Shown in pieces: positions 26,497-56,283 of a DNA stretch of 64,000 bases. Below the pieces are notes generated by a model. The model did not search any database. It had not been told where the DNA came from and saw nothing but the letters and a program-made list of their open reading frames with translations. This DNA is from Nitrospirota bacterium. GTDB taxonomy: Bacteria; Nitrospirota; UBA9217. A program made the position numbers and the translations under genes. Each line of letters begins with the position of its first letter. The stretch's first letter is position 1. Location: contig JAYTJE010000079.1 of the NCBI GenBank assembly GCA_043731355.1, positions 9,483-73,482 of the forward strand. The letters are read 5' to 3'.

Positions 26497-26561
26497 TACC
26501 CATCAGCAATATTTCGTAAGAAACTTTTCTTCTGCATAGATACTTCTGTCCAAGAATGTAC

Positions 26562-27373: not shown

Positions 27374-27442
27374 GTATTTATCATAGTCAAACAGAGAGAA
27401 GATGTCAAGAAAATCAGTAGTAGTCTCGGAGGTACGCTCCAG

Positions 27443-28282: not shown

Positions 28283-28303
28283 TTCAATCTTCCCTTCTGC
28301 AGA

Positions 28304-30760: not shown

Positions 30761-30766
30761 GGCCGG

Positions 30767-33700: not shown

Positions 33701-33952
33701 GCCGATGCGAAAGCAGTAATCCGGGGCCTTGGTTGCGCCTCCGATCTTGATCGCGTCTTCGTGGATCACATCCCGGTATGCTTCGGCATAGCCCGCTTTG
33801 TTGGCCATGTCCCAACCAAGAGCGCCAAGAAACGGGTTGAGAAAATCTTGGCGAAGCTGCGCTTCGTTGTACTGACCGCCCTTGTAATTATCAAGGTTCC
33901 GGTCAAAGCGTTCGATCAGCTCGGCGATTTCATTCGGCAGCCCCATCAGCAC
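30767..33952 (-). CDS. Type IIG (MmeI-like) restriction-modification fusion enzyme: N-terminal PD-(D/E)xK nuclease plus N6-adenine methyltransferase plus target-recognition domain
   Basis: Nuclease 'PDYCFRIGG...FVEAKKP'. Methyltransferase motif I 'DPACGSGSFL' and motif IV 'NPPY'. 1061 aa, AT-rich. Confidence 0.8.
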   Translation of the reverse strand: MLMGLPNEIAELIERFDRNLDNYKGGQYNEAQLRQDFLNPFLGALGWDMANKAGYAEAYRDVIHEDAIKIGGATKAPDYCFRIGGVKKFFVEAKKPSVNLKDDVSPAFQLRRYAWSAKLPLSILTDFEEFAVYDCRIKPVQTDKASTGRILYFTYKDYPAKWDELVSIFSPTSVQKGSFDRYAESSKLKKGTATVDDAFLTEIEGWRDLLARNIAIRNTGLSPRELNFAVQRTIDRIVFLRICEDRGIEEYGRLQMQLNGTNVYKRLVQLFSQADDRYNSGLFHFQREKERHEEPDKLTPNISIDDKPLKDIINRLYYPESPYEFSVLSADILGQVYEQFLGKVIRLTAGHQAKVEEKPEVRKAGGVYYTPKYIVDYIVKNTVGNLLNPPLEKGGKGGFKASDVNPPQSPFVKGGNSITPKEASKLRILDPACGSGSFLLGAYQYLLDWHLKWYIENEPEKWAKVKQPSIYQGPSPDPNTPNWHLTTAEKKRILLNNIYGVDIDSQAVEVTKLSLLLKVLEGESNQTLANQLRMFHERALPDLGDNIKCGNSLVGPDFYRQQTMLDDEERYRVNVFDWDKEFSEITKAGGFDAVIGNPPYIRSQSLGEEMRKYYSQDYRTATATYDIYVLFVERGVSLLKDKGRLGYILPNKFFTTDYGEGLRGLLTDNNLIDHIVDFEDAQIFKGAGTYTNLLLLQKRKDSPICRYAHLGAIYKSEGTRGLSQMLDDGSFDFDPIELAHGGQRWTIAVGAGGNLLTRLQSELPLLNSIGPHCFQGLKTSADKLYMVTRQSKKGNICKVTNGLNETIEIEQAILRPVVKGEHVKRYVTDRSAQLYIIYPYSVDSNGQAKLIASDVLQNDYPLTWAYFKSIKQVLGDRDRGTWSSRPDWYAYARGQNIATFIGRKLLLPYMTTRLRADLDEDNDLFFVNITTGGYGLRFENAEDHDLKYILGLLNSKLLDNFIRQMTNAFRGGYFAVNKQAIERLPFRPINFNEAHDKIRHDKIVSLVDQMLSLNKQLPATKTDHEKTAILRQIDAVDVQIDQLVYELYGVTDQEQKIIKST
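32705..32800. repeat. Cluster of three G/C-rich hairpins (C5-6 ... G5-6 inverted repeats) inserted in-frame in the RM gene
   Basis: CCCCCTTTGACAAAGGGGG, GGGGGATTTA..TAAATCCCCCC and CCCCCCTTTTCTAAAGGGGGG. The insert encodes a KGG-rich peptide between methyltransferase motifs. Confidence 0.6.
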
Positions 33953-34096
33953 TCCACAGTCCTTGGACAGTATTTTTTATTCTCGAAAACACTACTACAA
34001 GTGGCTGGAATTGTCCAGAAAAGAGATGGGTGCTGCCTTGCGGCAGCTCAGAACGACATGTTACCTGGATAAGCCTATGCTCGACTAAAGGGGCAC

Positions 34097-39560: not shown

Positions 39561-39759
39561 AATTAAAACTACAGTATTTACAATGAGGTGTCAATAAGGA
39601 ACTTTCTCTCCCATCAGGATGTTATGAAGCCGGCGATGATGTTATTGATTTACGGCCCGCGCGGGCGGGCACTTTAATAATCGGCCGCACACGTTCTCAA
39701 ATTTCTCAAATTTTAATTTTACGTTGACAACGTCAGATCAATTGCCTTATAGTGCGCGC

Positions 39760-40044
39760 ATGAGATGGCAATCTATCATAGTGCTTCTGGCGATAGCTCT
39801 CAGCATTGTTGCGCCGCCCTCGCTGCCTGCCCTGGCAGCCCAGGGGGGGCAAACCGAGATAGGAACCTTTGATGTCTGCCACTCGACAACACCCGCACTG
39901 TCATCGAACGGTGAAATGCCCTGTATCAATGAATGTATGAACCTGCCCCTTCCCCAGGGGACCAGTAATGCTTCCGCAGCGTTAACTCTTCGATTCAAAC
40001 CACTCTGTATCGCCTTTCAAGACGAACGTCCTCCAAAAAGCTAA
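39760..40044 (+). CDS. Small secreted Cys-containing protein, possibly leaderless
   Basis: Signal peptide 'MRWQSIIVLLAIALSIVAPPSLPALAAQ'. TTGACA-17/18-TATAGT ends 6 nt before the ATG. Confidence 0.35.
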   Translation: MRWQSIIVLLAIALSIVAPPSLPALAAQGGQTEIGTFDVCHSTTPALSSNGEMPCINECMNLPLPQGTSNASAALTLRFKPLCIAFQDERPPKS

Positions 40045-40116
40045 GCAGCGCCACCAGACCGAAGATATGAGTATTCCTCCCCGGAATAGGTATGCGCGTG
40101 TCCGCGTATGCCAATA

Positions 40117-40182
40117 AGCTCGGCTCCGCTTCGGCACTATCCGTTATGATTGTGCATTATTTGGTATTTGCGAAGCGGAGCT
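40117..40182 (+). other. Long hairpin (11-bp perfect stem, 37-nt loop) followed by UAUUUUU; terminator or attenuator between the small ORF and the tlpA-like gene
   Basis: GCTCCGCTTCG ... CGAAGCGGAGC, then TATTTTT. Confidence 0.35.
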
Positions 40183-40211
40183 ATTTTTAAAGCTTCTCCG
40201 GTTGCGGTTAG

Positions 40212-40724
40212 TTGTCCCGGCTATGGAGCATCGTGAACAGATTAATTGTCATTGCATTCCTCCTGATAACGATTGCACCTGTTCATGCCTTTTCAGGCCA
40301 GGTCGGCGCAAAGGCACCATCATTCGTACTTGTTGACTCGAACGGAGCGATGATTTCACTGGAGCACTTTAAGGGAAAGGTGGTGTTCCTGGATTTCTGG
40401 GCGCCCTGGTGCATCCCGTGCAGACAGGAGCTGCCGGAGCTCGATGCATTGTATAAGAAATACGGCAGCGATCGCTTTGAAGTCATCGCCGTCAGCATGG
40501 ATCCTTCTGAAAAAAACACAGCGGCGTTTTTACGAAAGTTTCCGTTGAGCGTTCATGTCGTTGTCGATGTTAGGAACGAGGTTTCCGACGCCTATCGCGT
40601 TACCAGTCTGCCGACCGGGTTCATTATCGGAAGAGACGGTGTTATCAAGTACCAGCACAAGGGTTTCCAAAGTGAAGACCGCGTCGTCTATGAAAAAGAG
40701 ATCGACGAATTATTGAAGCAATAA
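40212..40724 (+). CDS. TlpA/ResA-like periplasmic thiol:disulfide oxidoreductase
   Basis: Signal peptide and 'WAPWCIPC' thioredoxin motif. Confidence 0.8.
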   Translation: MSRLWSIVNRLIVIAFLLITIAPVHAFSGQVGAKAPSFVLVDSNGAMISLEHFKGKVVFLDFWAPWCIPCRQELPELDALYKKYGSDRFEVIAVSMDPSEKNTAAFLRKFPLSVHVVVDVRNEVSDAYRVTSLPTGFIIGRDGVIKYQHKGFQSEDRVVYEKEIDELLKQ

Positions 40725-40761
40725 CTGCATTATGAGACAACAATAACCTTAAAAGGAGAAT

Positions 40762-41667
40762 TTGAAAATGATGAAACACAGCTGGAATACAGGGAATGCG
40801 CTCGTTGGTATATTCGCGCTGGTGATGTTGTTCGGGTGCGGTGAAACGACAAAAACTGAGATCGTGACCGTGAAGGAATCTTTGCCTGCAAGCACCTACT
40901 TAGTCGAGTATATCACGGGAATGATGCCTGCGGCTGAGGGCAAGACCGAGTTCACACTTCGCATTGCGAAGCGAAGCGATGGTTCGCTGGTAACAGGACT
41001 TACCTCAACAGGCCTTTCAATAAAGCCAATGATGTATATGATCAAACCGACGGGCGTCGATAGCCATTCAACGCCTGTAGACAGCATCGTGGACAACGGA
41101 GACGGCACATATTCCTGCGCGGTGTACTATCTCATGCCCACGATGAGTGGTTATTGGGAGTTGAAGGTCAATATCGGGTCTGAAGCTGCTGTCTTTTACC
41201 CTTATGTCAATATGGCTATGGGCACCGATACGATCAAAGCAAAATTGTATGGAGCCGATGATGTTGTAAGTTCAATGTCCGGGACACAATACAATAGATA
41301 CTATCTGTTCAGCGATGGTCCGGTCAGTGCTGCAACTTCGACTTTCAGTCTGTTCATCGCCCATGGTGAAGACATGAATATGAATTTCAAACCCGCATAT
41401 GTTGGGGCGACAATGAGCAGTCCAACGGGGTTGGTCACTTCTATGACCGTTACCGCATCTCAGGATACCGCATTTACAATCCCACTTTCCGCCGTGCATA
41501 GTGGAAACGGCCATTGGACCGTGTCAGGCCTGATCGGTCTCATGTCCTCGAAAACGACGACGATCTATGTAAAAATGGCTTTGAACGGACAGGACAAAAC
41601 TATTGACGGCATGGTTTCATCGCCGACGAGTACAAATTACGCTACGTTCTTTGTAACTCCGCAGTAG
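40762..41667 (+). CDS. Lipoprotein with two Met-rich YtkA/FixH-like repeats (putative periplasmic metal binding)
   Basis: Lipobox 'LFGC'. The repeated units are 'FTLRIAKRSDG..PMMYM' and 'FSLFIAHGEDMNMNF'. Confidence 0.45.
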   Translation: MKMMKHSWNTGNALVGIFALVMLFGCGETTKTEIVTVKESLPASTYLVEYITGMMPAAEGKTEFTLRIAKRSDGSLVTGLTSTGLSIKPMMYMIKPTGVDSHSTPVDSIVDNGDGTYSCAVYYLMPTMSGYWELKVNIGSEAAVFYPYVNMAMGTDTIKAKLYGADDVVSSMSGTQYNRYYLFSDGPVSAATSTFSLFIAHGEDMNMNFKPAYVGATMSSPTGLVTSMTVTASQDTAFTIPLSAVHSGNGHWTVSGLIGLMSSKTTTIYVKMALNGQDKTIDGMVSSPTSTNYATFFVTPQ

Positions 41668-41681
41668 CGGAAAAGGGTAAA

Positions 41682-42662
41682 ATGAATAGATATGCGATAA
41701 CGATTACCTGTGCGGCCCTCCTCGCGGGGGCCGCGCTTTTCTCTCCCCTCCCGGCCTACGCCGGATCCTGCTGCGGCGGCGGGGGCGGCGCCGGACTTAT
41801 CCTGCCGAAATTCTATTCGAGCATGCTCGATCTGTCCTTTGAGCTTGAAAAATACAACGGCTACTGGGACCAGCGGGGCGTCCACCGCGCCGATCCCGAG
41901 GGGTCGGACCTGCGGCAATACCGGCTGAACCTGGGTTATGGACAACGCTTGTCCCCTCGCTGGCAGGCGAGCCTTGTCGTGCCGTATATATGGAACAGCA
42001 ATGGTTATTCCGGCTTCTCTTCCCGCACTGACGGCTTGGGCGACACGACCATGAATCTCTGGTACGAAGCGCTGAGCGATGAATCGGCCTGGAAAGTGCG
42101 GGACCTCAAGGATATGGCCCCCTCGGTCATGATCGGCCCGTCGCTGGTAATTCCGACAGGAATTTCTCCCTACGATGACGTAAACAGCAGTTTCGACGTT
42201 ACCGGCCGCGGCTTCTACCGGCTCGACGGGAACGTCATTGTCTCGAAAACCATCCATCCCTGGACCGCATCCCTTTCTCTTGCCTATGGGACCTATTTCG
42301 AGCGAGCGGTCAACCGGGAATACGGCAACTATGTCGAGCCTTACCATAAAGAACTCGGCGACCGGACTTCGGCCGCCTTGTCCCTAAGCTATATCTATTA
42401 CCTCGGGACCGGCGGCGATACGCTCACGGGCACTGCGTCTCTGTCGCAGCTCCGGGAGGCAGATGCGACGATCAACGGCGCAAAAGACACGTCCAGCGGG
42501 TTTAAAAAAGACGCCCTGGGCCTTGCCCTAACATACTCCAGCACCGACAGCGACTGGAGCGTCCGCATGGGCTGGAACCATGCGATCATGTTTGACGGCT
42601 GGGGAGAGAACTTCCCTACTACGGACGTTTACACACTGGGGGTCGGCTATGGGTTCCGTTAA
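41682..42662 (+). CDS. Putative outer-membrane beta-barrel protein
   Basis: Signal peptide, then 'GSCCGGGGGAG', and alternating beta-strand patterning. Confidence 0.5.
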   Translation: MNRYAITITCAALLAGAALFSPLPAYAGSCCGGGGGAGLILPKFYSSMLDLSFELEKYNGYWDQRGVHRADPEGSDLRQYRLNLGYGQRLSPRWQASLVVPYIWNSNGYSGFSSRTDGLGDTTMNLWYEALSDESAWKVRDLKDMAPSVMIGPSLVIPTGISPYDDVNSSFDVTGRGFYRLDGNVIVSKTIHPWTASLSLAYGTYFERAVNREYGNYVEPYHKELGDRTSAALSLSYIYYLGTGGDTLTGTASLSQLREADATINGAKDTSSGFKKDALGLALTYSSTDSDWSVRMGWNHAIMFDGWGENFPTTDVYTLGVGYGFR

Positions 42663-42663
42663 G

Positions 42664-43215
42664 ATGACCAGGATGACACACCTTTGCCTGCTGCTGTTTC
42701 TTCTCTTCGGTTGCGGCGGCACGATGAATGACCTCGCCCCCTCGAACAAGGACAAGCGCCCCGGTGTTCTATGCGGCATTACCGGGCCGGAAGTATGTCA
42801 GGCAGCGCCGGACTTCACACTTTCTGATACTCAGGGAAACATGGTTACCCTTTCCTCTGTCGTGTCTTCCCCCGGCGTCAGGGGCACGGTCATCTATTTC
42901 ACCATGTGGTGCCCGATATGCGATACGCATATGAGCAACATACGGTCTTACATCCTTCCAAACTATCCCGCGGTGCGTTTTTTCATTGTTGATTATGTCT
43001 CAGGCAGCGTTTCCGCGGCGAGGGACGAAGAAGTCAATAACGGTTATTCCGGTTCGGGGTTCACGGTACTCGCCGATACACACCAGACGGTCCTTAACCG
43101 TTTTCATGCCACGATGGGGACAACGATCGTTATCGACTCGAACGGCATTGTCCGTTTGAATGAGGATTTCAAAGACGGTTCACGGCTAAGCTCGGCGTTG
43201 TCCAAGCTGCCCTGA
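42664..43215 (+). CDS. Thioredoxin-fold lipoprotein (CxxC)
   Basis: Lipobox 'LFGC' and 'WCPIC'. The ATG sits 1 nt after the upstream stop. The track ORF starts earlier, at 42580. Confidence 0.6.
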   Translation: MTRMTHLCLLLFLLFGCGGTMNDLAPSNKDKRPGVLCGITGPEVCQAAPDFTLSDTQGNMVTLSSVVSSPGVRGTVIYFTMWCPICDTHMSNIRSYILPNYPAVRFFIVDYVSGSVSAARDEEVNNGYSGSGFTVLADTHQTVLNRFHATMGTTIVIDSNGIVRLNEDFKDGSRLSSALSKLP

Positions 43216-43242
43216 CCGGCAATAAAAATAGAGGAGATAATC

Positions 43243-43716
43243 GTGAAAACGATACAACACTATGCTGGTAGCGTGGTTCTCTTGATAATGATGGTTTTTG
43301 TCGGCATTACCACTCAGGCAGGCGGACCTGACAATGACATTGACCATCACCGTTCATGCGGCAATTGCGGCATGGACCGAAAAGCCTATGGGTTCAGCCG
43401 GATGCTGGTGCAGTATGAGGACGGGACCGTGGTGGGAACCTGCAGCCTGCACTGTGCGGTCATTGAGCTTGATGCGAATCCGGGGAAAACCGTCAAGACT
43501 TTGCTCGTTGCCGACCGCGAAACCCGGACACTGCTGGAGGCTGAAAAAGCGGTATGGGTCATGGGCGGCAAAAAGCGAGGGGTGATGACTGAACAGCCAA
43601 AGTGGGCCTTTCAGTCAAAAGAAGGCGCTGAAGCGTTCATAAAGGTAAATGGCGGAACGAGCTCGACCTGGGCGGAGGCGCTTGCAGCCGCACGGGAGGA
43701 AATAAAACAGCATTGA
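43243..43716 (+). CDS. NosL-like copper-binding protein
   Basis: 'CGNCGMDRKAYGFSRMLV...GTCSLHCAV' resembles the NosL metal site. It has an N-terminal TM helix or signal. Confidence 0.4.
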   Translation: MKTIQHYAGSVVLLIMMVFVGITTQAGGPDNDIDHHRSCGNCGMDRKAYGFSRMLVQYEDGTVVGTCSLHCAVIELDANPGKTVKTLLVADRETRTLLEAEKAVWVMGGKKRGVMTEQPKWAFQSKEGAEAFIKVNGGTSSTWAEALAAAREEIKQH

Positions 43717-43793
43717 CAATAATCGTATTGTGGCAAGAGAGAGGTGAATGGACTTTACTTTCCGTCAACAGCGCGTTATCATGTTAAACAATT

Positions 43794-44252
43794 ATGAGAA
43801 GAATAAAAGCGCATAACCATACCATGAGCGCCCTGCTCATCACCTTACTGTTGGCAAGCCTTGCCGGTTCCGCCTGTGCCAGCCGACATACCTATGCCGC
43901 CCCGGCCATCGTCGGCGCAAACGCCGTCATCGACATATCCTCACTGAAAACAGCAACGCCGTTTTTCCTCACCTATCGCTATCAAGGCAAACAGATCAAC
44001 TTCTTTGTTTTGCGGCTGGACTCCGGCGTTCAATCCTACCTCGACGCCTGCGCAAGCTGCTATCATCACAAGCAGGGATACCGGCCCGGGGACGGCGCGG
44101 TTACGTGCCGATACTGCAATATAAAATTTTCCGTATATAAACTGGAAAAAGGCCTGGGAAGCTGTTACCCGATCAAGCTCAAGGGAAAGACCGAAGCGGG
44201 GAACTACCTGATCTCACGCGCCGCTCTGGAAAACGCCGCTACGCTGTTCTAA
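43794..44252 (+). CDS. DUF2318-like Cys-rich membrane protein
   Basis: 'CASCYHHKQGYRPGDGAVTCRYCNIKF' zinc-ribbon-like motif and a signal or TM segment. Confidence 0.45.
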   Translation: MRRIKAHNHTMSALLITLLLASLAGSACASRHTYAAPAIVGANAVIDISSLKTATPFFLTYRYQGKQINFFVLRLDSGVQSYLDACASCYHHKQGYRPGDGAVTCRYCNIKFSVYKLEKGLGSCYPIKLKGKTEAGNYLISRAALENAATLF

Positions 44253-44263
44253 CACGAAGACCG

Positions 44264-45472
44264 CTATTCATACCTGAGCGCCTGTATCGGGTCCTGCATT
44301 GCCGCCTTCCGCGCGGGATACACGCCGAAGAAGATCCCCACCGCGGCTGAAAAAAAGAACGCCATCAGGATGGACCAGAGCGAAACGCTCGTCGGCAGCA
44401 CATCAACGAATACCGGGATGAGCAGCGCCAGGCCTACGCCGAGCATGATGCCGATGATGCCGCCCGCGCCGGAGAGCGTGATGGCCTCGATCATGAACTG
44501 GGCCAGAATGTCTTTGTTCCTCGCTCCGAGCGCCTTCCGGATGCCGATCTCCCTCGTTCGTTCGCGCACCGAGACCAGCATGATGTTCATGATCCCGATG
44601 CCGCCGACCAGCAGCGATATCCCCGCGATGCCGCCGAGCACGGCGGTCAGCACACCGAGGACCGTATTCATCATTTCCAGCATCGCCCCCTGCGTTTGAA
44701 TGGTGAAATCCTCTTTATGGGCATGCCGTTTTATCAGCACGTCCTTGATCTGGGCAATGGCGCGGTCCACATCTTCCGCCCGCGGCGTTGACGCGATGAG
44801 CTCAAAAAGCGAGTCGGTATCAAAGAGCTCCTGGCCGCTGGTCACGGGAATATACACGATGTCGTCGATATCCATACCCATGCTCGTGCCTTTTTTCCGC
44901 ATGACCCCGACCACCCGATAGCGCGCATCAGAGAGGACCACGACTTTGCCGAGGGCGTTCTCCGTGCCGAAAAGCTCCTCTTTTACCTTGGCGCCGAGAA
45001 CGACGACCTTGGTTTTGGAATCGACATCGCTTTGTGAAATATAACTTCCCGTGTCCACAAAAAGATTGCGGACCCGCTGAAATTCGGGCGTGGTGCCGAT
45101 GATCATGACGTCCCGGCCCATGTTATGATACTTGAGTTTTCCCGTTCCGAACACCAGCGGGACCGCGTCGGTCAGAAGCCAGGCGCGCCGCCTGAGCGCC
45201 TGGGCGTCATCATAGGTCAGCTTGCGCACCGTGCCCGCGGAGGGAGGATGAAAGCCGCCGCTGGTGGAAGTCTTCCCGGGCGTGATGATGAGCAGGTTCG
45301 TTCCGAGGCCGGTCATTTCCCTGGTGATGTAAACCTGCGCCCCTTCGCCGATGGAAATGAGGAGAATAACGGCCATGACCCCGATTATGACCCCGAGCAT
45401 CGTCAGTGCCGACCGGATCTTGTTTGAGAGCAGCGCCTCGAAAGCAACGCGGAACGTTTCAATAAAGTTCAT
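44264..45472 (-). CDS. ABC transporter permease, FtsX/MacB family
   Basis: One TM helix, a large periplasmic domain, then three TM helices. The ATG at 45472 overlaps the ATPase stop (ATGA). Confidence 0.85.
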   Translation of the reverse strand: MNFIETFRVAFEALLSNKIRSALTMLGVIIGVMAVILLISIGEGAQVYITREMTGLGTNLLIITPGKTSTSGGFHPPSAGTVRKLTYDDAQALRRRAWLLTDAVPLVFGTGKLKYHNMGRDVMIIGTTPEFQRVRNLFVDTGSYISQSDVDSKTKVVVLGAKVKEELFGTENALGKVVVLSDARYRVVGVMRKKGTSMGMDIDDIVYIPVTSGQELFDTDSLFELIASTPRAEDVDRAIAQIKDVLIKRHAHKEDFTIQTQGAMLEMMNTVLGVLTAVLGGIAGISLLVGGIGIMNIMLVSVRERTREIGIRKALGARNKDILAQFMIEAITLSGAGGIIGIMLGVGLALLIPVFVDVLPTSVSLWSILMAFFFSAAVGIFFGVYPARKAAMQDPIQALRYE

Positions 45473-46146
45473 GCGCGCACCTGGTCGTCGATGAGCCTTC
45501 CGTCTTTTACCGTAATGGTCCGTTTGCATCGGTCCGCCACGCTCCGGTCATGGGTAACAATGACGATCGTGACCCCTTCCTTGTTCAGCCCGGTCAGGAG
45601 GTCCAGGATCTCCTCGCCGGAACGGCTGTCGAGATTTCCCGTGGGCTCGTCTGCAAGAAGGAGCGGCGGATGATTGACGAGTGCCCGGGCAATTGCGACG
45701 CGCTGCTGTTGTCCTCCCGAAAGTTCCGTGGGTTTGTGGTGCATGCGTTCGGAAAGACCTACCTGCTGAAGCATGGGAATGGCGCGCTCTCTGCGAACCC
45801 GGGCCGGCACACCGCTGTAGATAAGCGGCACCTCCACATTTTTTAACGCGGTAAAACGAGGGAGCAGGTTGAAGGTCTGGAACACGAAGCCGATCTTGAC
45901 GTTCCGGATCGAAGCGAGTTCGTCATCCGTCATGGCGCTGATCTCCCGGTCCTCGAAGCGGTAGGAACCGCTGGTGGGGCGATCCAGGCACCCGAGAATA
46001 TTCATGATCGTTGATTTCCCGGAACCCGAGGGCCCCATGATGGCGATGAGCTCCCCCTGCTGAACGCTTAAGGAAACGTCCGTCAGAACGGTTATATCCA
46101 CCGCGCCCATGCGATAGGTTTTTGTTACCTTAATGAGTTCGATCAT
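45469..46146 (-). CDS. ABC transporter ATP-binding protein (MacB/LolD type)
   Basis: 'GPSGSGKST', 'LSGGQQQRVAIARAL' and 'LLLADEPTGNLD'. Confidence 0.9.
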   Translation of the reverse strand: MIELIKVTKTYRMGAVDITVLTDVSLSVQQGELIAIMGPSGSGKSTIMNILGCLDRPTSGSYRFEDREISAMTDDELASIRNVKIGFVFQTFNLLPRFTALKNVEVPLIYSGVPARVRRERAIPMLQQVGLSERMHHKPTELSGGQQQRVAIARALVNHPPLLLADEPTGNLDSRSGEEILDLLTGLNKEGVTIVIVTHDRSVADRCKRTITVKDGRLIDDQVRA

Positions 46147-46159
46147 GTTTTTAAACCGG

Positions 46160-47254
46160 TTACTCCAAAACCACCTTCACGCCATCGTTCAAGCCTGTTG
46201 CCTCCGGCGTGGTGATCACAAAGTCTCCTGGGGACAGACCTTTGGTCACCTGGGTTGAAACCCAGTTGGTCTCTCCGAGATCAATGGAGACCAGCTTCGC
46301 AACGGCTGTCGCTCCGGGCTTGAGCGCGCTCCCGGTCAAACGGAACACCTGTTTTTTGCCGGCCCGCTCGATGACCGCCTGGGATGGCACGGAAAGAACA
46401 TTGGGAAGCGTCGTGACCAGGATCTCGACATCAGCCGACATTCCCGGCTTGATCTTCGGGTATTTCCTGTCAAAATAGATCCAGACGTCGGCAGTACGGG
46501 TTTCGAGCTTTCCCCCGCTTATGATCGGCGATACCTGCCTGATCGCTCCCGGAAATTGCTCGCCAGGAAAGGCATCGACGGTTGTTGTGACAGGCTGTCC
46601 CAGCCGCAATCTTCCCACATCCACCTCGTCGATGGTGGCGAGAACATAGATCTTATCGGGATTGACCAGCGTTACGATCTGCTTTCCCGGCAATACCAGT
46701 TCCCCCACCTCGGCATACTTTTTCGATATCACTCCGTTAAATGGCGCCCGAATGACCGAATAATCGCCTTTTATCTTGCTATCCTCCGCAGCAGCTTCAT
46801 ACTGTGCTTTTGCGACCTCATAGGCCCTGCGGGCTCCATCGAGGTCCTGCTGGGCGACCATGCCTTTTTCAAACAGGTCCTTCATGCGATTGAGGTTTTT
46901 TTCGGATTCCACAAAGGTGGCCTTGCTCTGCGCCAGCGCATTCCCGGTCTGTACGGATTCCTCCGTCAAATCAAGTTGGGCAATGAGCGCTCCCGCTTTT
47001 ACCACGTCACCCTCTTTGAGCGGGAGCTTGATCACCCTGCCGGTACGCTGCGCCGAGAGCGTAACTTCGGTCTCGGACTTCACCGTTGAGGTCGTTGTTG
47101 CGTTCAGGATAACGCGCAGCTCACCGGGCTTCAGTTCAATGGCTTTTACCGACACTGGTTTCTTCCCGCTGAGGGCGATAAACAGGACAACAACCAACGC
47201 GATGACGCCGGTCCAAAACAGCTTGGTTTTCAGGATGCTTCCTAATTTTGACAT
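46160..47254 (-). CDS. HlyD/MacA-family periplasmic adaptor
   Basis: N-terminal TM helix, lipoyl-like and coiled-coil segments, and a beta-barrel domain. Confidence 0.85.
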   Translation of the reverse strand: MSKLGSILKTKLFWTGVIALVVVLFIALSGKKPVSVKAIELKPGELRVILNATTTSTVKSETEVTLSAQRTGRVIKLPLKEGDVVKAGALIAQLDLTEESVQTGNALAQSKATFVESEKNLNRMKDLFEKGMVAQQDLDGARRAYEVAKAQYEAAAEDSKIKGDYSVIRAPFNGVISKKYAEVGELVLPGKQIVTLVNPDKIYVLATIDEVDVGRLRLGQPVTTTVDAFPGEQFPGAIRQVSPIISGGKLETRTADVWIYFDRKYPKIKPGMSADVEILVTTLPNVLSVPSQAVIERAGKKQVFRLTGSALKPGATAVAKLVSIDLGETNWVSTQVTKGLSPGDFVITTPEATGLNDGVKVVLE

Positions 47255-47265
47255 TTTAGCGACCT

Positions 47266-47712
47266 CTACGATTCATTTGCATGGTACTCAAGGCGTTCTT
47301 TGATGGCCTTCATAAAGCCGCGGGTCAATTCTCCCAGTTTATCGGCAACGACCACCTCCTGGAGAAAGCTGAAGTGTCCGTTCACGTGGCCTTCCAGGTG
47401 GTAGGTGATCTCTGTTTCATCATCGGATATTTTTCTGAAGGTGGTTGTTCCGGTGGTTATGAGGTGTTCATGAGTTGCGGTCCATGCTATTTTCTCATAC
47501 TCGATCAGTTCGTCCGTATGGGCATGCATCTCAACCATTCGCGTGAAAGGGCCAAGCGACATTCTGATGTTCCAGATGGAATCGAGGTCGTTCAGGATCT
47601 CCACGCCCTTGCACCCGGGAAAAAGGCAGCCCACCTCTTTCCGGTCGATCATAAAGGACCATACGCTTCTGATCGGCAGCTTGACGGTAAAAGTGACCTC
47701 TCTCGTCGGCAT
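47266..47712 (-). CDS. SRPBCC (CoxG/polyketide-cyclase-like) protein
   Basis: 148 aa. An AGGAG ribosome-binding site lies 6 nt before the ATG at 47712. It sits inside the efflux operon. Confidence 0.55.
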   Translation of the reverse strand: MPTREVTFTVKLPIRSVWSFMIDRKEVGCLFPGCKGVEILNDLDSIWNIRMSLGPFTRMVEMHAHTDELIEYEKIAWTATHEHLITTGTTTFRKISDDETEITYHLEGHVNGHFSFLQEVVVADKLGELTRGFMKAIKERLEYHANES

Positions 47713-47756
47713 TATATTCTCCTGACACACCGTTCAATAAACCAGCCGTACCCCGT

Positions 47757-47790
47757 ATCTTGAATCTTGAATCTTAAATTTTAAATCTTG
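47757..47790. repeat. About five tandem copies of the heptamer ATCTTGA/ATCTTAA
   Basis: atcttgaatcttgaatcttaaattttaaatcttg, read directly from the sequence. Confidence 0.4.
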
Positions 47791-47792
47791 CT

Positions 47793-49094
47793 TTACGCTT
47801 CTACTCGTCCCATCGCTTTAAAGAACCGTGCCGCGGCAAGCTGGTAATCATAGAGCGCCTGAACGTGGTCGGTCTCGGCATTGACCGAAGCGACCTGTGC
47901 ATCGGTAATTTCGATATAGGCGCCGACGCCGGCGGCGTATCTGCCCTGGGCAAGTTCAAGGCTCTCGCCCGCTTTTTTGAGCAGGGACTCCATCACCGCT
48001 ATCCGGGCCGCCGCGCTTTCGATATCCGCGAAAGCCTGGTTTAATTCTATAAGGACCGATCGTCGAAAGGTCTGGCCCTGCGCCTCGAGAGCGCGCAGGT
48101 CCGCCCGGGCCTCGCCCACCTTCCCTTGCGTGAGCCCTCCCTCGAAAAGCGGCACAGACAGCAGTATGCCGGCATTCCAGTTGTCCTGGGTGTTTATCTG
48201 GATCGTGCCCATACTGGTGCTGCCGCTTGCCCAGTTGTACGAGCCGTGCGCGGAGAGCGTGGGAAAATAGTTCGCTTCTTCCGCACTGATCCTTGCGCGC
48301 GCAGCCTGAATATCAGCGTCGGCTTTCAGCAGCTCAGGACGGTTCTTGAGCGCTTCAGTCATTGCCTGTTCCATCGTGGGAATGGAAACCGGGGCCGAAA
48401 GGACATCCTCGAGCTCCACGTCCCCTCCCGGATCGATGCCCATGGCGTTATAGAGGCCGATCGTCCGGAGCCGGACATTATTCTTCGCATTGATCATGCT
48501 CAGTTTGGCGTTGTTCACTTCCACTTCAACCCTGGTCACTTCGAATCTCGGTTTGGACCCTGAGCGGAAAAAAGCTTCAGCCTGCTTCAGATGGCTCTCC
48601 GCCTGTTCTGAAGTTTTCCGCGACAGGAGCACGAGCTTCCGGGCGGCCAGGAGCGCATAATAAGCCTGCTTCACGTTGAGGACCGTATCCTGTACCACGC
48701 GCTGTTCATCAAATTCAGCCGCTCGCAAAGCCGAGCGCGCCGCGTCACGCGTATTTCCGGTCCTGCCGAAATCATACAGCACCTGGTTGACCGAAAGCGA
48801 GGTCGTGTTGCTCCGGGAGATGCTTTGCACCTGGCCGCCGACCCCATGACTTTCTTCATGGCCGGTGCTGGCGGTTATTCGCGGGAGATAGGGCGACGTA
48901 GCCTGCGTCATGCGCCCCTGACCGGCGTTCACATTCTCCCGTGCGGACGTGATCGCCGGCTGGTTCTTGAGCGCGGTTTCAATGCAGTTCCGGAGCGTAA
49001 GCGTAGTCGGTTCGGCACTCAGAGCTTGAAAGACCGCAAAGAGCTGGATCGCAATCAGACCGCCCAAAAAGCTTTTTATTCCCGGTTTTATCAT
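47793..49094 (-). CDS. TolC-family outer-membrane efflux protein
   Basis: Signal peptide and two OEP repeats. It is the first gene of the tolC-macA-macB operon. Confidence 0.8.
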   Translation of the reverse strand: MIKPGIKSFLGGLIAIQLFAVFQALSAEPTTLTLRNCIETALKNQPAITSARENVNAGQGRMTQATSPYLPRITASTGHEESHGVGGQVQSISRSNTTSLSVNQVLYDFGRTGNTRDAARSALRAAEFDEQRVVQDTVLNVKQAYYALLAARKLVLLSRKTSEQAESHLKQAEAFFRSGSKPRFEVTRVEVEVNNAKLSMINAKNNVRLRTIGLYNAMGIDPGGDVELEDVLSAPVSIPTMEQAMTEALKNRPELLKADADIQAARARISAEEANYFPTLSAHGSYNWASGSTSMGTIQINTQDNWNAGILLSVPLFEGGLTQGKVGEARADLRALEAQGQTFRRSVLIELNQAFADIESAAARIAVMESLLKKAGESLELAQGRYAAGVGAYIEITDAQVASVNAETDHVQALYDYQLAAARFFKAMGRVEA

Positions 49095-49268: not shown

Positions 49269-49853
49269 TTAGGATAACCATTGCGTAAAAAAATTCATGG
49301 CCGCGCCCGATACGATCGGGATGGTAAAGTTATCATTGCCAATGGGGATTAGTTCGACGGCCGCAGCGGTCACGGCGCCTGCAACGATGACCACGGGAGG
49401 GACCCGCACCCCGGCCGCGGGCAGAAGGACCAGCCCAACGAACAATCCCGCCATGATGAAAGCCGCCGAGCCTTCGAGGCTCTTGGCCCCGATCTTGGTC
49501 TTTCCATATCGTTCTCCGATCGTTGTTGCCGCGACATCGCCGAAGGCGAGAAAGCAAATGGCCGCCGACGCAAGGTTCGCGGGAAAAGCGTAGAGGGACA
49601 AGCCTATGCCGAGGATATACGGCGCCGTGCCGGTAAGCTTCTGTTTTTCGTTGTTCCTGATAAAGCTGCCGAATTTTGTATAGACAAATTGGTTTATTGC
49701 AGGCAGTTTCAGCCGTGCAACGTCGAGGACTATGACGATAGTAAATAAAACGGCGTAGGTGAGGAGCGCCTGGTTCCTGCCCAGGACAAAATAAAGAGCA
49801 AGGAGCCCTGTTCCGCCGACAAGGTGATAAAATTTTCTTCCGAGGTGTTTCAT
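49269..49853 (-). CDS. Polytopic membrane protein of the dolichol-kinase / CTP-transferase (DGK1/Sec59-like) family
   Basis: Six TM helices and 'AFGDVAATTIGERYG'. Confidence 0.45.
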   Translation of the reverse strand: MKHLGRKFYHLVGGTGLLALYFVLGRNQALLTYAVLFTIVIVLDVARLKLPAINQFVYTKFGSFIRNNEKQKLTGTAPYILGIGLSLYAFPANLASAAICFLAFGDVAATTIGERYGKTKIGAKSLEGSAAFIMAGLFVGLVLLPAAGVRVPPVVIVAGAVTAAAVELIPIGNDNFTIPIVSGAAMNFFTQWLS

Positions 49854-50929
49854 AAACCTTGCCCCTCCGGGGGAATGCCCGAGCTCGATGAAAGCTCACG
49901 TGAATCTGGCGAAGGAAGCAGGCAGGTAAGCCGGCATTCGGCGTTCTCGTTGCATCGCTCACATTCAAGCTGGATGGTGCTGTGGCCAATTTTGAACTTA
50001 TTCGAAAGGAGCTCCCTGATCTCGTCAAGCAGTTCCCTGCTGCGGCTGACGAGCTGATCATCGATGATCACATGAGCGCTCATGGCATGGACCCCGGAGG
50101 TGATGGTCCATACATGGATGTGGTAGGCTTCACGGACCCCGGCAAGTTTCGCGATCTCGGTTGCCACCGTATCAATATCAATATGTGAGGGCACCGATTC
50201 AAGCAGGATGCTCACCGATTCTTTGACCAGCGCCCAGGCGCCGAAGATGATCACGAAGGATATTAGAATACTGAGGATCGGATCGATCAGGTACCAGCCG
50301 GTCTGGAGAATGATGATGCCTCCGACCACCACCCCGACCGAGGACAAGGCATCACCGATAATATGCAGGTAAGCGCTGCGAATGTTCAGGTTGGCATGGC
50401 TATGCTTGGTCAGGACCATCGCGCCGATGATGTTGGCGACCAGGCCGATGATGGCCACAACGAGCATGAGCGTCCCCTGCACCGGCTGCGGGTGCAGGAT
50501 GCGCAGGTATGCCTCGTAGATGATGTAGAGAGAGAGCAGAACGAGAATAACGCCGTTGATGAAAGCCGCCAGGATCTCGAGCCGGTAGAACCCGAAGGTC
50601 CTCCGGTCGGTGGCCGGCATGGTGGCGAACTTCATGGCGAAGAAGGACAACAGCAGCGCCAGGTTGTCGGTCAGCATATGTCCGGCGTCGGACAAGAGCG
50701 CCAGGCTGTTCGAAAGCAGTCCGCCGACTATTTCGGCGACCATCATCAGGACCGTGATGGCGAGCGCGATAAGCAGTCCCTGTCGTCCTCCGGCAGCCGC
50801 CGGATTCAGGCTGTGGGCGTGGCCATGGCCCTCCTCATGCCCGTGTTCATGATGTTCATGGTCATGCGCTTCATCATGGTCGTGATCATGCTGTTCGTGC
50901 TGCCCGCTCTGTCTCTGGGGGATGGTCAT
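49850..50929 (-). CDS. czcD: Cation diffusion facilitator (CzcD-like) with a His-rich N-terminus
   Basis: 'HDHDHDEAHDHEHHEHGHEEGHGHAHS', six TM helices, and 'LLSDAGHMLTD'. A Cys-rich C-terminal tail is present. Confidence 0.85.
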   Translation of the reverse strand: MTIPQRQSGQHEQHDHDHDEAHDHEHHEHGHEEGHGHAHSLNPAAAGGRQGLLIALAITVLMMVAEIVGGLLSNSLALLSDAGHMLTDNLALLLSFFAMKFATMPATDRRTFGFYRLEILAAFINGVILVLLSLYIIYEAYLRILHPQPVQGTLMLVVAIIGLVANIIGAMVLTKHSHANLNIRSAYLHIIGDALSSVGVVVGGIIILQTGWYLIDPILSILISFVIIFGAWALVKESVSILLESVPSHIDIDTVATEIAKLAGVREAYHIHVWTITSGVHAMSAHVIIDDQLVSRSRELLDEIRELLSNKFKIGHSTIQLECERCNENAECRLTCLLPSPDSRELSSSSGIPPEGQGL

Positions 50930-51035
50930 GGTTTAGCAAGCTCCGATTTCCGCAGATAAAAACTTAGGATTTTCAGGACGAAAGTCTTTTCTTTTACGGA
51001 TTTATCCTGTTATCCTGTCAAAGCATGTATTCGGG

Positions 51036-51854
51036 TCAGGGTTCGCTCCAGAACCTGAGTTCCTTGACCGGTTTCACAGCCCCGAGTTCCGCGGCATATC
51101 CGTAATAGGTCATCAGCCCTTTTTGCTCCTGAGGCCCGAAATCGAAGCTGAAGGAATTCCAGTATTCAAGCAGCATCGGCGCCGGTATTCCGAAACGGCC
51201 GGCGTGTTCCCGCGCCAGCTCCGGAAGATGCGAGAGCCCGTAGGCTTTCGATTCCCGAAGGATAGAATAGAGCGAAGAGAGGTCTTTATCAAGGTTTTTT
51301 TTGTAATTGATCTGCCAGAGGGCGAAAACGAACGGAAGACCGGTGAACTCGTGCCAGAGGCCGCCCAGGTCATATTCGTGGTCAAACCCCGCGACCCGCG
51401 GACGTTTCAGCGCATGATCGCCGATCAGGAGCACGGCGTCGGCCCGGTCATACGGGTTGTCCTTCCCCTGCACAAAGTGCGTATAGTCGGGACTGACGCG
51501 GTTTTTGAGCTCAAGCAATATCCTGAGCAGCACCACCGAGGTCGCCGAAGCGGTGGTCAGTGCAACCGTCTTTCCGTTCAGCTGGTCCAAGGGCAGGCGG
51601 CTCTGGAGAACGATGCTCATGGCGTTGTTCCTGGAGGTAATGGAAAAGCCGGGCATGATCAGATAGCGGCCGGGATGGGAGGCGAATTCGATGGATGATG
51701 ACGGCGATACATCCAGCCCGCCCTCGCTGAGGAGGCGGTTCAATTCCGTTGGAATGCCTTCCACGAGCGTAAAGGGGAATTTGACCTTGCCGGTGAGTAT
51801 CCCGGCATGGACGGGCACGGTGTTCGAATAGACGATATGGCCGAGTTTAAGCAT
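51036..51854 (-). CDS. mqnA: Futalosine-pathway menaquinone biosynthesis protein MqnA/MqnD family
   Basis: 'MLKLGHIVYSNTVP' N-terminus and a periplasmic-binding-protein-like fold. The track ORF extends to 51920. Confidence 0.55.
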   Translation of the reverse strand: MLKLGHIVYSNTVPVHAGILTGKVKFPFTLVEGIPTELNRLLSEGGLDVSPSSSIEFASHPGRYLIMPGFSITSRNNAMSIVLQSRLPLDQLNGKTVALTTASATSVVLLRILLELKNRVSPDYTHFVQGKDNPYDRADAVLLIGDHALKRPRVAGFDHEYDLGGLWHEFTGLPFVFALWQINYKKNLDKDLSSLYSILRESKAYGLSHLPELAREHAGRFGIPAPMLLEYWNSFSFDFGPQEQKGLMTYYGYAAELGAVKPVKELRFWSEP

Positions 51855-51879
51855 AAGATGATGATCGGGCAGAAGAAAA

Positions 51880-56254: not shown

Positions 56255-56283
56255 AGAGAGGCATCCTTCCGGGGAGTCAGCGG

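Follow-up and report, generated by a model that had tools for sequence, protein, structure and literature searches.

A conserved envelope gene cluster of Nitrospirota and its possible role in Cu(I) trafficking

To begin with, the cluster was delimited in the window, that is, the whole 64,000-nt stretch of Nitrospirota DNA that was analysed. On the plus strand, a sigma-70-type promoter (39724–39753) is followed by the gene of a 94-aa protein (39760–40044), by two stable hairpins and a U-run (40088–40188), and by the genes of a TlpA/ResA-class thiol-disulfide oxidoreductase (40233–40724), a YtkA/CopC-like lipoprotein (40762/40768–41667), a COG4313/FapF-class beta-barrel (41682–42662), a thioredoxin-fold lipoprotein (42649–43215), a NosL-type Cu(I) chaperone (43243–43716) and a DUF2318 (FtrD-like) Cys-rich lipoprotein (43794–44252, with an alternative start at 43824 used by a gene caller). 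All the genes named in an earlier sequence-only reading were found on this strand of the ORF list where that reading had placed them, including the barrel with its SCCGGGGG segment, and none fell into unrelated families, as profiles agreed directly for Redoxin/TlpA, NosL and DUF2318 and through relatives for YtkA. In contrast, the limits then given (40212–45472) did not hold, as the operon starts upstream with the promoter and the 94-aa gene, and position 45472 is the 5′ end of a convergent permease gene. The plus-strand operon probably spans 39.72–44.25 kb, with the permease gene outside the unit.

The comparison then drew on about 45 related loci belonging to three lineages, namely MAGs of Nitrospirota, of Geobacteraceae type and of Gammaproteobacteria. 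The matching gene order recurred in 39 genome loci and in further contigs, so the arrangement is not due to chance, and the conserved co-occurrence on which the sequence-only reading depended was found in all three lineages. Wherever a locus was long enough to reveal the order, the YtkA/CopC-like lipoprotein (core gene 1), the barrel (core gene 2) and the thioredoxin-fold lipoprotein (core gene 3) followed one another. This core trio is invariant, while TlpA, NosL, DUF2318 and the 94-aa protein are lineage-specific additions. All the homologues found came from MAGs or metagenomes, and those carrying a name are called hypothetical.

Neither the lipoprotein of core gene 1 (lipobox LFGC) nor the barrel of the window had a Pfam or NCBIfam match above threshold, and their families were taken from relatives and predicted folds, the structure models resting on shallow alignments. 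For the lipoprotein, YtkA profile matches were obtained in 10 of 26 relatives; the window protein is a short form, most relatives having about 230 aa more at the N-terminus. Its AF2 model (pLDDT 81) comprised two Ig-like beta-sandwich domains, with the copper chaperone CrdA as best structural match. The YtkA-like character proposed earlier was borne out through these relatives, but not the tandem Met-rich repeat, since the two domains had no detectable similarity (hhalign probability of 5.6%) and domain 1 alone is YtkA-like and holds the invariant Met and His residues. These residues (M91, M93, H102, M125, M151 and M153) form a Met5His cluster that was invariant in 42 of 42 sequences. CtaK/YtkA, itself a lipoprotein, has conserved His and Met residues and works with Sco in CuA assembly (PMC9145763, PMC13344008).

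The barrel, modelled as a probably 12-stranded outer-membrane channel, has an AxA signal-peptidase site followed by the mature N-terminus GSCCGGGGG, which appeared as [GA]SCCGGG across loci. The Cys pair was present in 79 of 84 representatives of the family, the rare substitutes being Cys-His or CxxC; these replacements also chelate metals, which favours a copper reading of the arm. Apart from this pair and a near-invariant His300, the lining of the barrel had no conserved Met, His or Cys. The arm was modelled with low confidence (pLDDT <50); in COG4313-type channels, the lumen is filled at its periplasmic end by an N-terminal segment (PMC4493636). Lipoprotein genes lie on both sides of the barrel gene, which overlaps that of the thioredoxin-fold lipoprotein by 14 nt, an overlap that was identical in seven other loci (L002, L003, L043, L044 and L046–L048).

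Regarding the thioredoxin-fold proteins, core gene 3 (motif MWCPIC, lipobox LFGC) matched AhpC-TSA (8e−11) and, weakly, ResA (2.5e−4). Its gene was always directly 3′ of the barrel gene in the loci compared, and the motif YFTMWCP[IV]C was kept in 37 sequences. The TlpA/ResA-like protein, which is membrane-anchored or secreted, carries FWAPWCIPC and matched AhpC-TSA (1e−26), Redoxin (2e−24), the ResA subfamily (4e−36) and TlpA (2e−21), with ResA (8.5e−27) and TlpA (4e−15) as nearest solved structures. Its ORF opens at TTG 40212, and the start chosen, GTG 40233, has GGAG 4 nt upstream. The gene preceded the core in 10 Nitrospirota loci and followed it in eight gammaproteobacterial loci. Sco and CoxB have Cys ligands that TlpA-class proteins are known to reduce (PMC9145763).

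NosL was recognized by PF05573 (34.4 bits, cut-off 24) and has the motif CGNCGM and a signal peptide without lipobox. Its residues C39, C42, M44, C67, C71 and M115, conserved in 24 homologues, map onto the SdNosL ligands C59, C62, M64, C88, D92 and M145, so that the Cu(I) ligands Cys, Met, Met and the Zn-site cysteines are kept (PMC8457098). NosL was linked to the core downstream in Nitrospirota and Geobacteraceae loci and upstream in L021 and L032. The DUF2318 protein (PF10080, 1e−15, 58 bits, cut-off 26.3) has the motifs DACxxC, CRxC and GxC, with cysteines conserved in 12 homologues, and was linked to the core in Nitrospirota loci only. Moreover, copper genes appeared within the same-strand cluster in a few relatives: L008 had NosL, a second outer-membrane protein, CopC (8.8e−20), CopD (7.2e−17) and DUF2318, L007 had NosL, SCO1/SenC (6.3e−23, CTTICP motif), then FtsX/ABC and DUF2318, and on the P0166 contig SCO1 lay just upstream of the cluster.

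A role in mobilising sulfane or elemental sulfur was also weighed, in which the Cys-Cys-polyGly arm would attack extracellular S8 or polysulfide and bring persulfide inward like the SoxY arm, the thioredoxin-fold proteins restoring the thiols. The Gly-flanked cysteines of the barrel resemble the GGCGG arm of SoxY, and Sox systems use thioredoxins. The hosts (Nitrospirota, Geobacteraceae/Desulfuromonadaceae and Chromatiales/Thiohalomonadales) belong to typical sulfur-cycling groups. Furthermore, a role in S8 activation has long been postulated for outer-membrane proteins with thiols (PMC3440390), and the substrates of COG4313 channels are believed to be hydrophobic (PMC4493636). However, this proposal leaves the Met5His cluster, the NosL Cu(I) ligands and the in-cluster CopC, CopD and Sco1 unexplained, the Cys-His and CxxC substitutes suit metal chelation more than sulfur carriage, and the neighbours scanned included no sox, dsr or sqr genes; it is regarded as improbable.

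Upstream of these genes, the promoter (TTGACA-18-TATAGT) agreed with 11 of 12 consensus positions, the top match of a 10-kb scan. The first ATG lies 6 nt past the −10 hexamer, implying a leaderless mRNA, and 15 Nitrospirota loci kept both hexamers, the −10-to-ATG distance and an AAyTTTAy stretch that precedes the −35. No conserved operator dyad was seen at the promoter across the Nitrospirota loci compared, and the best Fur-box match (13/19) was equalled in about 5% of shuffles and was not conserved. Neither a regulator nor an operator responsive to copper was found for the cluster, whose promoter looks constitutive. The 94-aa gene had homologues at the matching position in 17 loci, all of Nitrospirota, while Geobacteraceae loci had an extremely Cys/His-rich small membrane protein in its place, a point in favour of copper handling. 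Of four pairs of the 94-aa gene tested, the three more divergent gave dN/dS values of 0.23–0.37, and the closest, with few accumulated changes, gave 0.80. The protein had no Pfam or NCBIfam match and carries the motifs LDVCHSxTPALSSNG[DE]MPC and ERPPK behind an N-terminal hydrophobic segment, which is probably a membrane anchor, as the AxA signal-peptidase site is not conserved. Between this gene and tlpA, the hairpin region (40040–40215) folded at −65.4 kcal/mol (z = −3.8; 0 of 200 shuffles as stable) with no Rfam family match, and it is a candidate partial terminator or mRNA-stabilising element.

A strong promoter of its own with terminator-like hairpins behind is typical of genes for abundant subunits, and the barrel gene stands between two lipoprotein genes; a FapF-like barrel could accordingly secrete the 94-aa protein or bring a flanking lipoprotein to the surface, with the thioredoxins handling substrate cysteines. 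Such export is highly improbable, given that the 94-aa gene is missing from Geobacteraceae and gammaproteobacterial loci that keep the trio, that there are no other fap-like genes, that the 94-aa protein lacks amyloid-type repeats, and that the universally conserved Cys-Cys arm and the Met/His site would be left unexplained.

On the minus strand, a MacB-type FtsX permease gene (44264–45475; MacB_PCD 6e−45, FtsX 6e−22), with its stop codon 11 nt away from that of DUF2318, is accompanied by genes for an ABC ATPase of a MacB-type exporter (45469–46146; orthologues with PF00005 ABC_tran), a periplasmic adaptor (membrane fusion protein) (46160–47254; RND_mfp TIGR01730 2e−61, HlyD_D23 8e−25), a COXG/SRPBCC-fold protein inside the exporter operon (47266–47712; PF06240, 3e−6, 27.4 bits, cut-off 22.2) and a TolC-family outer-membrane factor (47793–49094; orthologues with PF02321 OEP). 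Orthologues were 75–86% identical for the ATPase and 59–76% for TolC, and the COXG/SRPBCC gene was kept with the exporter in L003, L005, L006, L008, L011, L012 and L044. The sequence-only reading had placed this exporter next to the cluster; it adjoins the cluster only in close Nitrospirota relatives also retaining RecJ-TatA-MobA synteny, and is absent after it in L004, L007/L009 and L043, so it is not taken as part of the system and is probably an independent module.

The likeness to Campylobacter had been drawn accurately, in that FetA is DUF2318+YHS, FetBCD an FtsX-type ABC transporter and FetEF thioredoxins, for which a reducing-power relay has been proposed (PMC10783030). No Ftr1/P19 genes were seen here, and the FtsX-ABC module of the window is not conserved with the core. 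From this parallel, a thiol-redox relay for another envelope machine was considered, which would bring reducing power to the outer membrane without transporting metal itself and could benefit extracellular-electron-transfer cytochromes or outer-membrane protein folding. Two thioredoxin-fold proteins and DUF2318 mirror FetE/F and FetA, and L007 and L009 had an in-cluster FtsX permease, an ABC ATPase and a multi-TM Cys-rich protein beside DUF2318. Moreover, in 10 gammaproteobacterial loci the trio adjoined homologous multihaem-cytochrome/porin clusters in three different arrangements, which the copper model does not predict and which was counted against it, and a monohaem cytochrome c lay within the operon in six. 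This relay is nevertheless unlikely, as the ABC transporter of the window is of the MacAB-TolC type, multihaem cytochromes are missing from all the Nitrospirota and Geobacteraceae loci compared, and the Met/His lipoprotein, NosL, CopCD and Sco1 all indicate a metal cargo. The Campylobacter accessory genes, too, may act in loading P19 with copper.

As for the cargo, it would be Cu(I), although a different soft, thiophilic metal is possible. The same architecture could handle or detoxify Hg(II), Ag(I) or Cd(II), or export Cu(I). Vicinal Cys pairs hand over Hg(II) in MerT, MerF and MerA, and a CDF transporter and an RND pump occur nearby in the window. Met/His sites of the CusF kind bind both Ag(I) and Cu(I), CrdA, the structural neighbour, is a determinant of resistance (PMC9182242), and PcoB/CopB-type barrels with metal-binding N-termini are tied to resistance (PMC7558416). 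However, the cluster was not linked to any mer, cus, copA or multicopper-oxidase gene or to a metal-sensing regulator, the promoter appears constitutive, and NosL, Sco1 and CopCD, its linked partners, serve supply or import, which makes such a cargo or direction quite unlikely. No cuproenzyme gene was seen in the 64-kb window, a point against the copper reading.

Overall, an envelope Cu(I)-trafficking system is considered moderately probable on the strength of sequence comparisons and predicted folds, in line with the earlier suggestion of envelope metal trafficking with copper as the likely metal, because of the CopC-CopD and Sco1 genes of sister loci, the NosL Cu(I) ligands, the Met/His residues of the lipoprotein and its match to CrdA. 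Since all linked partners act in supply or import and neither an efflux ATPase nor a Cus system or multicopper oxidase accompanies them, uptake and supply are somewhat favoured over disposal. From the gene identities, conservation, synteny, predicted folds and ligand residues, we infer the metal, the order of hand-over and its direction as follows. Copper would enter the channel, where Cu(I) would be ligated by the vicinal thiolates of the flexible N-terminal Cys-Cys-polyGly arm and passed to the Met/His site of the lipoprotein. In Nitrospirota, the metal would then reach NosL, and in sister genomes Sco1 or CopC/CopD, and from these the cuproenzymes or the cytoplasm. The thioredoxin-fold lipoprotein, its gene presumably coupled translationally to that of the channel, would keep the Cys pair and the cysteines of the chaperones in the reduced state, with the TlpA/ResA-like reductase behind it, while the DUF2318 lipoprotein and the 94-aa protein would be accessories specific to Nitrospirota. 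A small channel with a Cys-pair tip, combined with two lipoproteins that resemble a copper chaperone and a thioredoxin, was previously undescribed, and the operon encoding these proteins is widely conserved among uncultured bacteria.

On the + strand between 39.7 and 44.3 kb, the ORF survey of the window recovered seven closely packed genes. The first encodes a 94-aa protein (39760-40044), followed by a TlpA/ResA-class thiol-disulfide oxidoreductase with a WCIPC motif (40233-40724; AhpC-TSA 1e-26, Redoxin 2e-24, ResA subfamily 4e-36), a lipoprotein (40768-41667), a 326-aa secreted protein read as a barrel (41682-42662), a thioredoxin-fold lipoprotein with the motif MWCPIC (42649-43215; AhpC-TSA 8e-11), a NosL homologue (43243-43716; PF05573, 34.4 bits with the gathering cut-off at 24, aligned over positions 3-125 of the 131-position profile) and a DUF2318 (FtrD-like) lipoprotein of ~150 aa (43794-44252; PF10080 1e-15). 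The TlpA/ResA-class protein shows both the WCIPC motif and an N-terminal hydrophobic segment in its translation, as proteins of this class do, and its closest solved structures were ResA (8.5e-27) and TlpA (4e-15). The lipoprotein and the 326-aa barrel of the window had no Pfam or NCBIfam match by themselves, and an NCBIfam search of the unknown proteins returned no matches. Convergent to these genes, a MacB-type permease, an ABC ATPase, a membrane-fusion protein (MFP), a COXG/SRPBCC protein and TolC are encoded as a putative exporter (44264-49094, -), with the stop codons of the DUF2318 and permease genes only 11 nt apart. The ORFs and profile searches bore out the gene inventory of the sequence-only reading, which had proposed a periplasmic cluster handling a metal, probably copper; its observation was confirmed and its interpretation supported, with the corrections given below.

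One of these corrections concerns the operon start, which lies further upstream than had been proposed, at the promoter of the 94-aa gene. The best sigma-70-type promoter of the region (TTGACA-18-TATAGT, 39724-39753, 11 of 12 positions) was found before this gene, and both hexamers, an AAyTTTAy element 5′ of the -35 and a gap of ~6 nt from the -10 to the ATG were kept in 15 related loci. Since the ATG lies ~6 nt past the TATAGT hexamer, the mRNA of the 94-aa gene appears to be leaderless. Purifying selection acts on the protein, with dN/dS values of 0.23-0.37 in three more divergent pairs and 0.80 in the closest pair, in which few changes have accumulated, and it keeps the motifs LDVCHSxTPALSSNG[DE]MPC and ERPPK. 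Moreover, two stable hairpins and a U-run (z = -3.8) follow the gene, which suggests that the 94-aa protein may be made in excess over the products of the downstream genes. Homology to a Cys-rich small protein occupying the same position in Geobacteraceae was rejected (hhalign probability 0.9%). With regard to regulation, no credible RNA family was found in an Rfam/riboswitch search of 38.5-50 kb, and neither a conserved operator of the Fur, CueR or CsoR types nor a credible Fur box was found in the promoter region and the related loci. The best match to a Fur box (13/19) was equalled by ~5% of shuffles and fell in a non-conserved stretch, while a 6-1-6 palindrome across the -35 hexamer was discarded as an operator for not being conserved. 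The promoter spacer was variable.

A profile of the lipoprotein family was then searched against a species-representative genome collection, which yielded 39 loci, all of them in MAGs, with extra contigs added by look-up. The 39 loci came from Nitrospirota, Geobacteraceae/Desulfuromonadaceae/delta and Gammaproteobacteria (Chromatiales, Thiohalomonadales, and vent and sediment bins). After mapping the window proteins onto all of them, the order lipoprotein-barrel-thioredoxin lipoprotein (hereafter, the trio) was found in every locus long enough, the barrel being the most conserved gene (43-76% identity across lineages). An overlap of exactly 14 nt between the barrel and thioredoxin genes is shared by the window and the related loci L002, L003, L043, L044 and L046-L048. 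NosL is linked to the trio as well, downstream in the Nitrospirota and Geobacteraceae loci and upstream in L021 and L032, and a TlpA-like gene precedes the trio in 10 Nitrospirota loci and follows it in 8 gammaproteobacterial ones. Only Nitrospirota loci carried the DUF2318 and 94-aa genes. The exporter adjoined only those Nitrospirota loci sharing RecJ-TatA-MobA upstream and was absent 3′ of the cluster in L004, L007/L009 and L043; because this adjacency is limited to close relatives, with no conservation outside them, the exporter was considered a neighbour and rejected as a component of the system. Among the loci compared, an in-operon FtsX and ABC module was present only in L002/L009, L007 and L018.

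Other features of the window were recorded in passing. The COXG/SRPBCC gene of the exporter (47266-47712, -) is kept inside the MacB-MFP-TolC operon in several Nitrospirota MAGs, which hints at a hydrophobic ligand for the pump. Downstream of the exporter (49850-56955, -) are genes for a CDF transporter whose N-terminus is very rich in His, an MqnA-like protein of the menaquinone (futalosine) pathway, an RND pump with its OEP gene and a TetR regulator. At 9544-12774 (+), two same-frame ORFs with Molybdopterin and Molydop_binding domains are joined by an in-frame stop (10261-10263, within EHQARI*HSATVAALG), and the pair looks like a selenocysteine-containing formate dehydrogenase alpha subunit. 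Finally, the stretch 26000-34000 is of low GC content (0.44-0.50 vs. ~0.55 elsewhere). An Eco57I/MmeI-type restriction-modification fusion (30767-33952), an 818-aa SEC-C-motif protein and an Mrr-type endonuclease (27443-28282) are encoded there, and the stretch is probably a mobile defence island.

The mature form of the barrel begins with [GA]SCCGGG in 39 of 39 loci, following an AxA-type signal-peptidase site (N-terminal CC peptide: GSCCGGGGGAGLILPK). Because of this AxA-type site and a long, Pro-containing c-region, the barrel was read as cleaved by SPase I and not lipidated; a lipidated form with AGSC as the lipobox was rejected on the same c-region and on the -3/-1 positions, which fit the AxA site kept in the 39 loci. 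An exhaustive HMMER search of 1.84 billion representatives showed a compact family, with 208 representatives (50% identity) at E <= 1e-3 and 21 at E <= 1e-30. Among 84 full-length representatives, with identities as low as 23%, 79 had the CC pair straight after the signal peptide, while the five exceptions had Cys-His or CxxC at that position. The family is thus marked out by its vicinal Cys pair, and the few pairs that replace it are metal chelators too. One rival reading is a sulfane-sulfur carrier, the kind of thiol-bearing outer-membrane protein long postulated for S8 (PMC3440390); this explanation accounts for fewer observations, and the Cys-His and CxxC substitutions are among those hardest for it. 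Neither sulfur nor copper genes were found among the housekeeping neighbours of the gammaproteobacterial loci L034 and L035.

Besides the CC pair, the motifs PTGxSPYD and DVTGRGFYR characterize the barrel subfamily. The window barrel did not match Phenol_MetA_deg (PF13557), while 6 of 25 close relatives did (best, 5.9e-7) and 2 of 10 remote relatives scored above the 22-bit cut-off. In the channel Pput2725, the N-terminal ~14 residues enter the lumen from the periplasm and are folded inside it (PMC4493636). Compared with the COG4313 (PF13557) channels and FapF, the barrel constitutes a distinct, compact subfamily with CC straight after the signal peptide, and its context is one of metal and thiol proteins, not of aromatic catabolism or fap genes. 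In particular, a FapF-like export channel explains fewer of the observations: neither fapA-E nor an amyloid substrate accompanies the barrel, whose neighbours are thioredoxin-fold, YtkA-like, NosL and DUF2318 proteins, and the 94-aa protein is repeat-free and lineage-restricted. Searches from the window barrel and from a gammaproteobacterial-type barrel gave roughly 800-970 clusters each at 90% identity. Those from the window barrel were all from MAGs or metagenomes, as were the best 120 matches of the gammaproteobacterial-type query, with which a cultured carrier was sought; in both searches, the ones bearing a name were almost all 'hypothetical', with no meaningful functional name. A second putative outer-membrane protein of ~320 aa, devoid of the CC pair, is associated with the cluster in L007 (7585-8553), L009 (7741-8688) and L008 (13018-13989, directly before CopC-CopD); it had no family match and only marginal similarity to the CC-barrel.

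The lipoprotein family comprised ~100 clusters with no functional name except for one distant 'FixH family protein'. The window lipoprotein did not match YtkA (PF13115) at E <= 0.1, while 10 of the 26 aligned family members did (best, 9e-9), and the long-form homologue of L021 reached 28.3 bits, above the gathering score (cut-off 25.9). Against PDB sequences, the family profile gave chance matches only (lipase B, E >= 0.035). The AF2 model (pLDDT 81) consists of two beta-sandwich domains which are unlike each other (hhalign probability of domain 1 vs. domain 2, 5.6%), so the internal repeat was rejected and the two tandem repeats that had been described from the sequence were not upheld. The window protein is a short form, as most relatives (~520-600 aa) add an N-terminal Ig-like and helical region of ~230 aa. 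The lipobox Cys26 is invariant in the family, and M91, M93, H102, M125, M151 and M153 were invariant in 42 of 42 sequences. For comparison, the Cu(I) chaperone CrdA is CopC-like and rich in Met (PMC9182242), and the CtaK/YtkA lipoprotein has conserved His and Met residues and works with Sco in CuA assembly (PMC9145763, PMC13344008).

The linked genes provide ties to copper. Residues C42, M44 and M115 of the NosL homologue, kept in 24 homologues, correspond to Cys62, Met64 and Met145, which bind Cu(I) in S. denitrificans NosL, and C39, C67 and C71 to its Zn-site residues C59, C88 and D92; this mapping was made by eye on the motifs, with spacing in agreement with SdNosL (PMC8457098). The homologue shares Pfam membership, the Cys/Met/Met Cu(I) ligands and the Zn-site cysteines with canonical NosL. 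However, it differs from the NosL of nitrous oxide reductase clusters in not being a lipoprotein (ITTQAGGPD after the hydrophobic segment, no lipobox) and in having a predicted Cys4 rather than Cys3Asp Zn site; nosZ and nosDFY were not found in the window. Furthermore, NosL and DUF2318 are separated in L008 by same-strand genes for a second barrel, CopC (8.8e-20, His at the mature N-terminus) and CopD (7.2e-17), the last of which ends in a soluble beta domain like that of B. subtilis YcnJ. A SCO1/SenC gene (6.3e-23, CTTICP motif) follows NosL in L007, and SCO1 precedes the cluster on the looked-up contig P0166. A RegB/PrrB-like sensor kinase (GGxxNPF) adjoins the trio in the gammaproteobacterial loci L028, L031, L033 and L035, recalling the regB-senC linkage in Rhodobacter.

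Two further small proteins were observed next to the trio. A 160-220-aa, extremely Cys/His-rich membrane-anchored protein (GECSGDCxxxGCSxERxxxHTCCCW..., ending in DPPxPPP; no Pfam or NCBIfam match) lies directly upstream of the lipoprotein gene in the Geobacteraceae/Desulfuromonadaceae loci L014, L016, L018 and L019, where it takes the place that the non-homologous 94-aa gene has in Nitrospirota. A secreted 168-aa protein, with no Pfam or NCBIfam match, is encoded just upstream of the trio in L037 (874-1377), L038 (8368-8871) and L040 (8179-8682); its predicted mature N-terminal His (LQA|HETREG) may indicate a histidine-brace-type copper protein.

Taken together, on the sequences and models it is rather probable that the cluster handles copper. 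Since every partner linked to the cluster acts in supply or import, and neither an efflux ATPase nor a Cus system, a multicopper oxidase or a metal sensor was among them, uptake and supply are tentatively favoured over export. Another soft metal, or copper export, would explain fewer observations. For this and the other rivals considered, the invariant Met/His cluster, the NosL ligands, CopCD/Sco1 and the Cys-His/CxxC substitutions are the hardest to accommodate. One set of observations was not predicted by the copper model: in 10 gammaproteobacterial MAG loci (L023, L025-L027, L037, L038, L040, L041, L047 and L048), the trio lies beside a homologous multihaem-cytochrome set and a putative porin, in three relative arrangements. 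These cytochromes have 6-12 CxxCH motifs each and include MtrC/F-like domains, a 12-haem NHL-repeat protein and a GlyGly-CTERM cytochrome of ~1000 aa. Along with the monohaem cytochrome c encoded inside the operon in six loci, they suggest a link to extracellular electron transfer.

Four known systems, canonical NosL among them, share parts of this arrangement. The CtaK (YtkA)/PCuAC-Sco-TlpA relay likewise combines a YtkA-type Met/His lipoprotein with a thioredoxin-fold partner and a TlpA/ResA-class reductase, and Sco1 itself belongs to the cluster of L007 and is also encoded on contig P0166. In contrast to that relay, an outer-membrane barrel is obligatory here and linked cytochrome oxidase genes are lacking; CPxC takes the place of the CxxxC...H of Sco in the thioredoxin lipoprotein, and the Met/His lipoprotein is extended by a second Ig-like domain and, in most relatives, by the ~230-aa N-terminal region. 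A barrel is also paired with a Met-rich chaperone in CopB/PcoB with CopC/PcoC (and CopD) and in H. pylori CrdA/CrdB. The resemblance to the iron-uptake accessory genes of Campylobacter that had been noted from the sequence held in part. As in FetMP-FetABCDEF of C. jejuni, there are a DUF2318 domain, two thioredoxin-fold proteins and a CxxC(G)M metal-binding domain (YHS in FetA, NosL in the cluster) (PMC10783030), to which L007 and L009 add, inside the cluster, an ABC transporter of the FtsX type and a multi-TM protein. However, Ftr1 (FetM) and P19 (FetP) are missing, the DUF2318 protein is a ~150-aa lipoprotein without the 8 TM helices and YHS of FetA (PMC10783030), the ABC module of the window is convergent and of the MacAB-TolC type with an MFP, whereas FetBCD has neither adaptor nor TolC, and Fet has nothing that corresponds to the barrel and the YtkA-like lipoprotein. 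A purely thiol-redox relay of the kind put forward for Fet (PMC10783030) explains fewer observations and has particular difficulty with the invariant Met/His cluster of the lipoprotein. As read from the sequences and models, the system would be a hitherto unknown variation on copper trafficking in the envelope, founded on a 'CC-barrel' that has not been described before.

In the proposed mechanism, copper would reach the channel, where the thiolates of the flexible CC arm at the barrel N-terminus would ligate it as Cu(I); the arm would then pass the metal to the lipoprotein anchored in the outer membrane, at its Met/His site. The next acceptor would be NosL or, elsewhere, Sco1 or CopC/CopD, with cuproenzymes or the cytoplasm as the destination. 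The TlpA/ResA-like reductase and the thioredoxin lipoprotein, whose translation would be coupled to that of the barrel, would hold the cysteines reduced, much as TlpA keeps the Sco and CoxB cysteines reduced (PMC9145763). The copper routes across the outer membrane considered in a 2020 review were only general porins, the TonB-dependent NosA/OprC and chalkophores (PMC7558416). The role proposed for the barrel is likewise copper passage, and OprC also has a Cys-containing Cu(I) site (CxxxM-HxM) (PMC7558416), but the barrel is small, TonB-independent and provided with a terminal Cys pair, and would work with dedicated outer-membrane-anchored chaperone and thioredoxin lipoproteins. With clearly less confidence, and only tentatively, the trio could represent a fourth, unrecognised route, consisting of a TonB-independent barrel with a CC 'swinging arm', a reducing thioredoxin and a Met/His chaperone.

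The crossing of the outer membrane by copper is poorly understood. The barrels form a compact and highly conserved family of ~1,000 clusters at 90% identity, none of them with a meaningful functional name, and copper chaperones and thiol reductases are its gene partners. If the proposed mechanism holds, the CC-barrels would receive their first function, the enigmatic DUF2318/thioredoxin (Fet-type) accessory genes would gain a concrete partner set, and the system would account for the Cu(I) supply of anaerobes and microaerophiles in sulfidic or metal-rich habitats. On the more tentative reading as a fourth route, the CC-barrel family, with its 208 representatives (50% identity), would form a class of its own among metal channels, new and thiol-gated, and in some Gammaproteobacteria the module may be functionally coupled to extracellular-electron-transfer cytochromes that could reduce or mobilise mineral-bound copper at the surface of the cell. 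As the carriers are all uncultured, much of envelope metal biology is invisible in model organisms.
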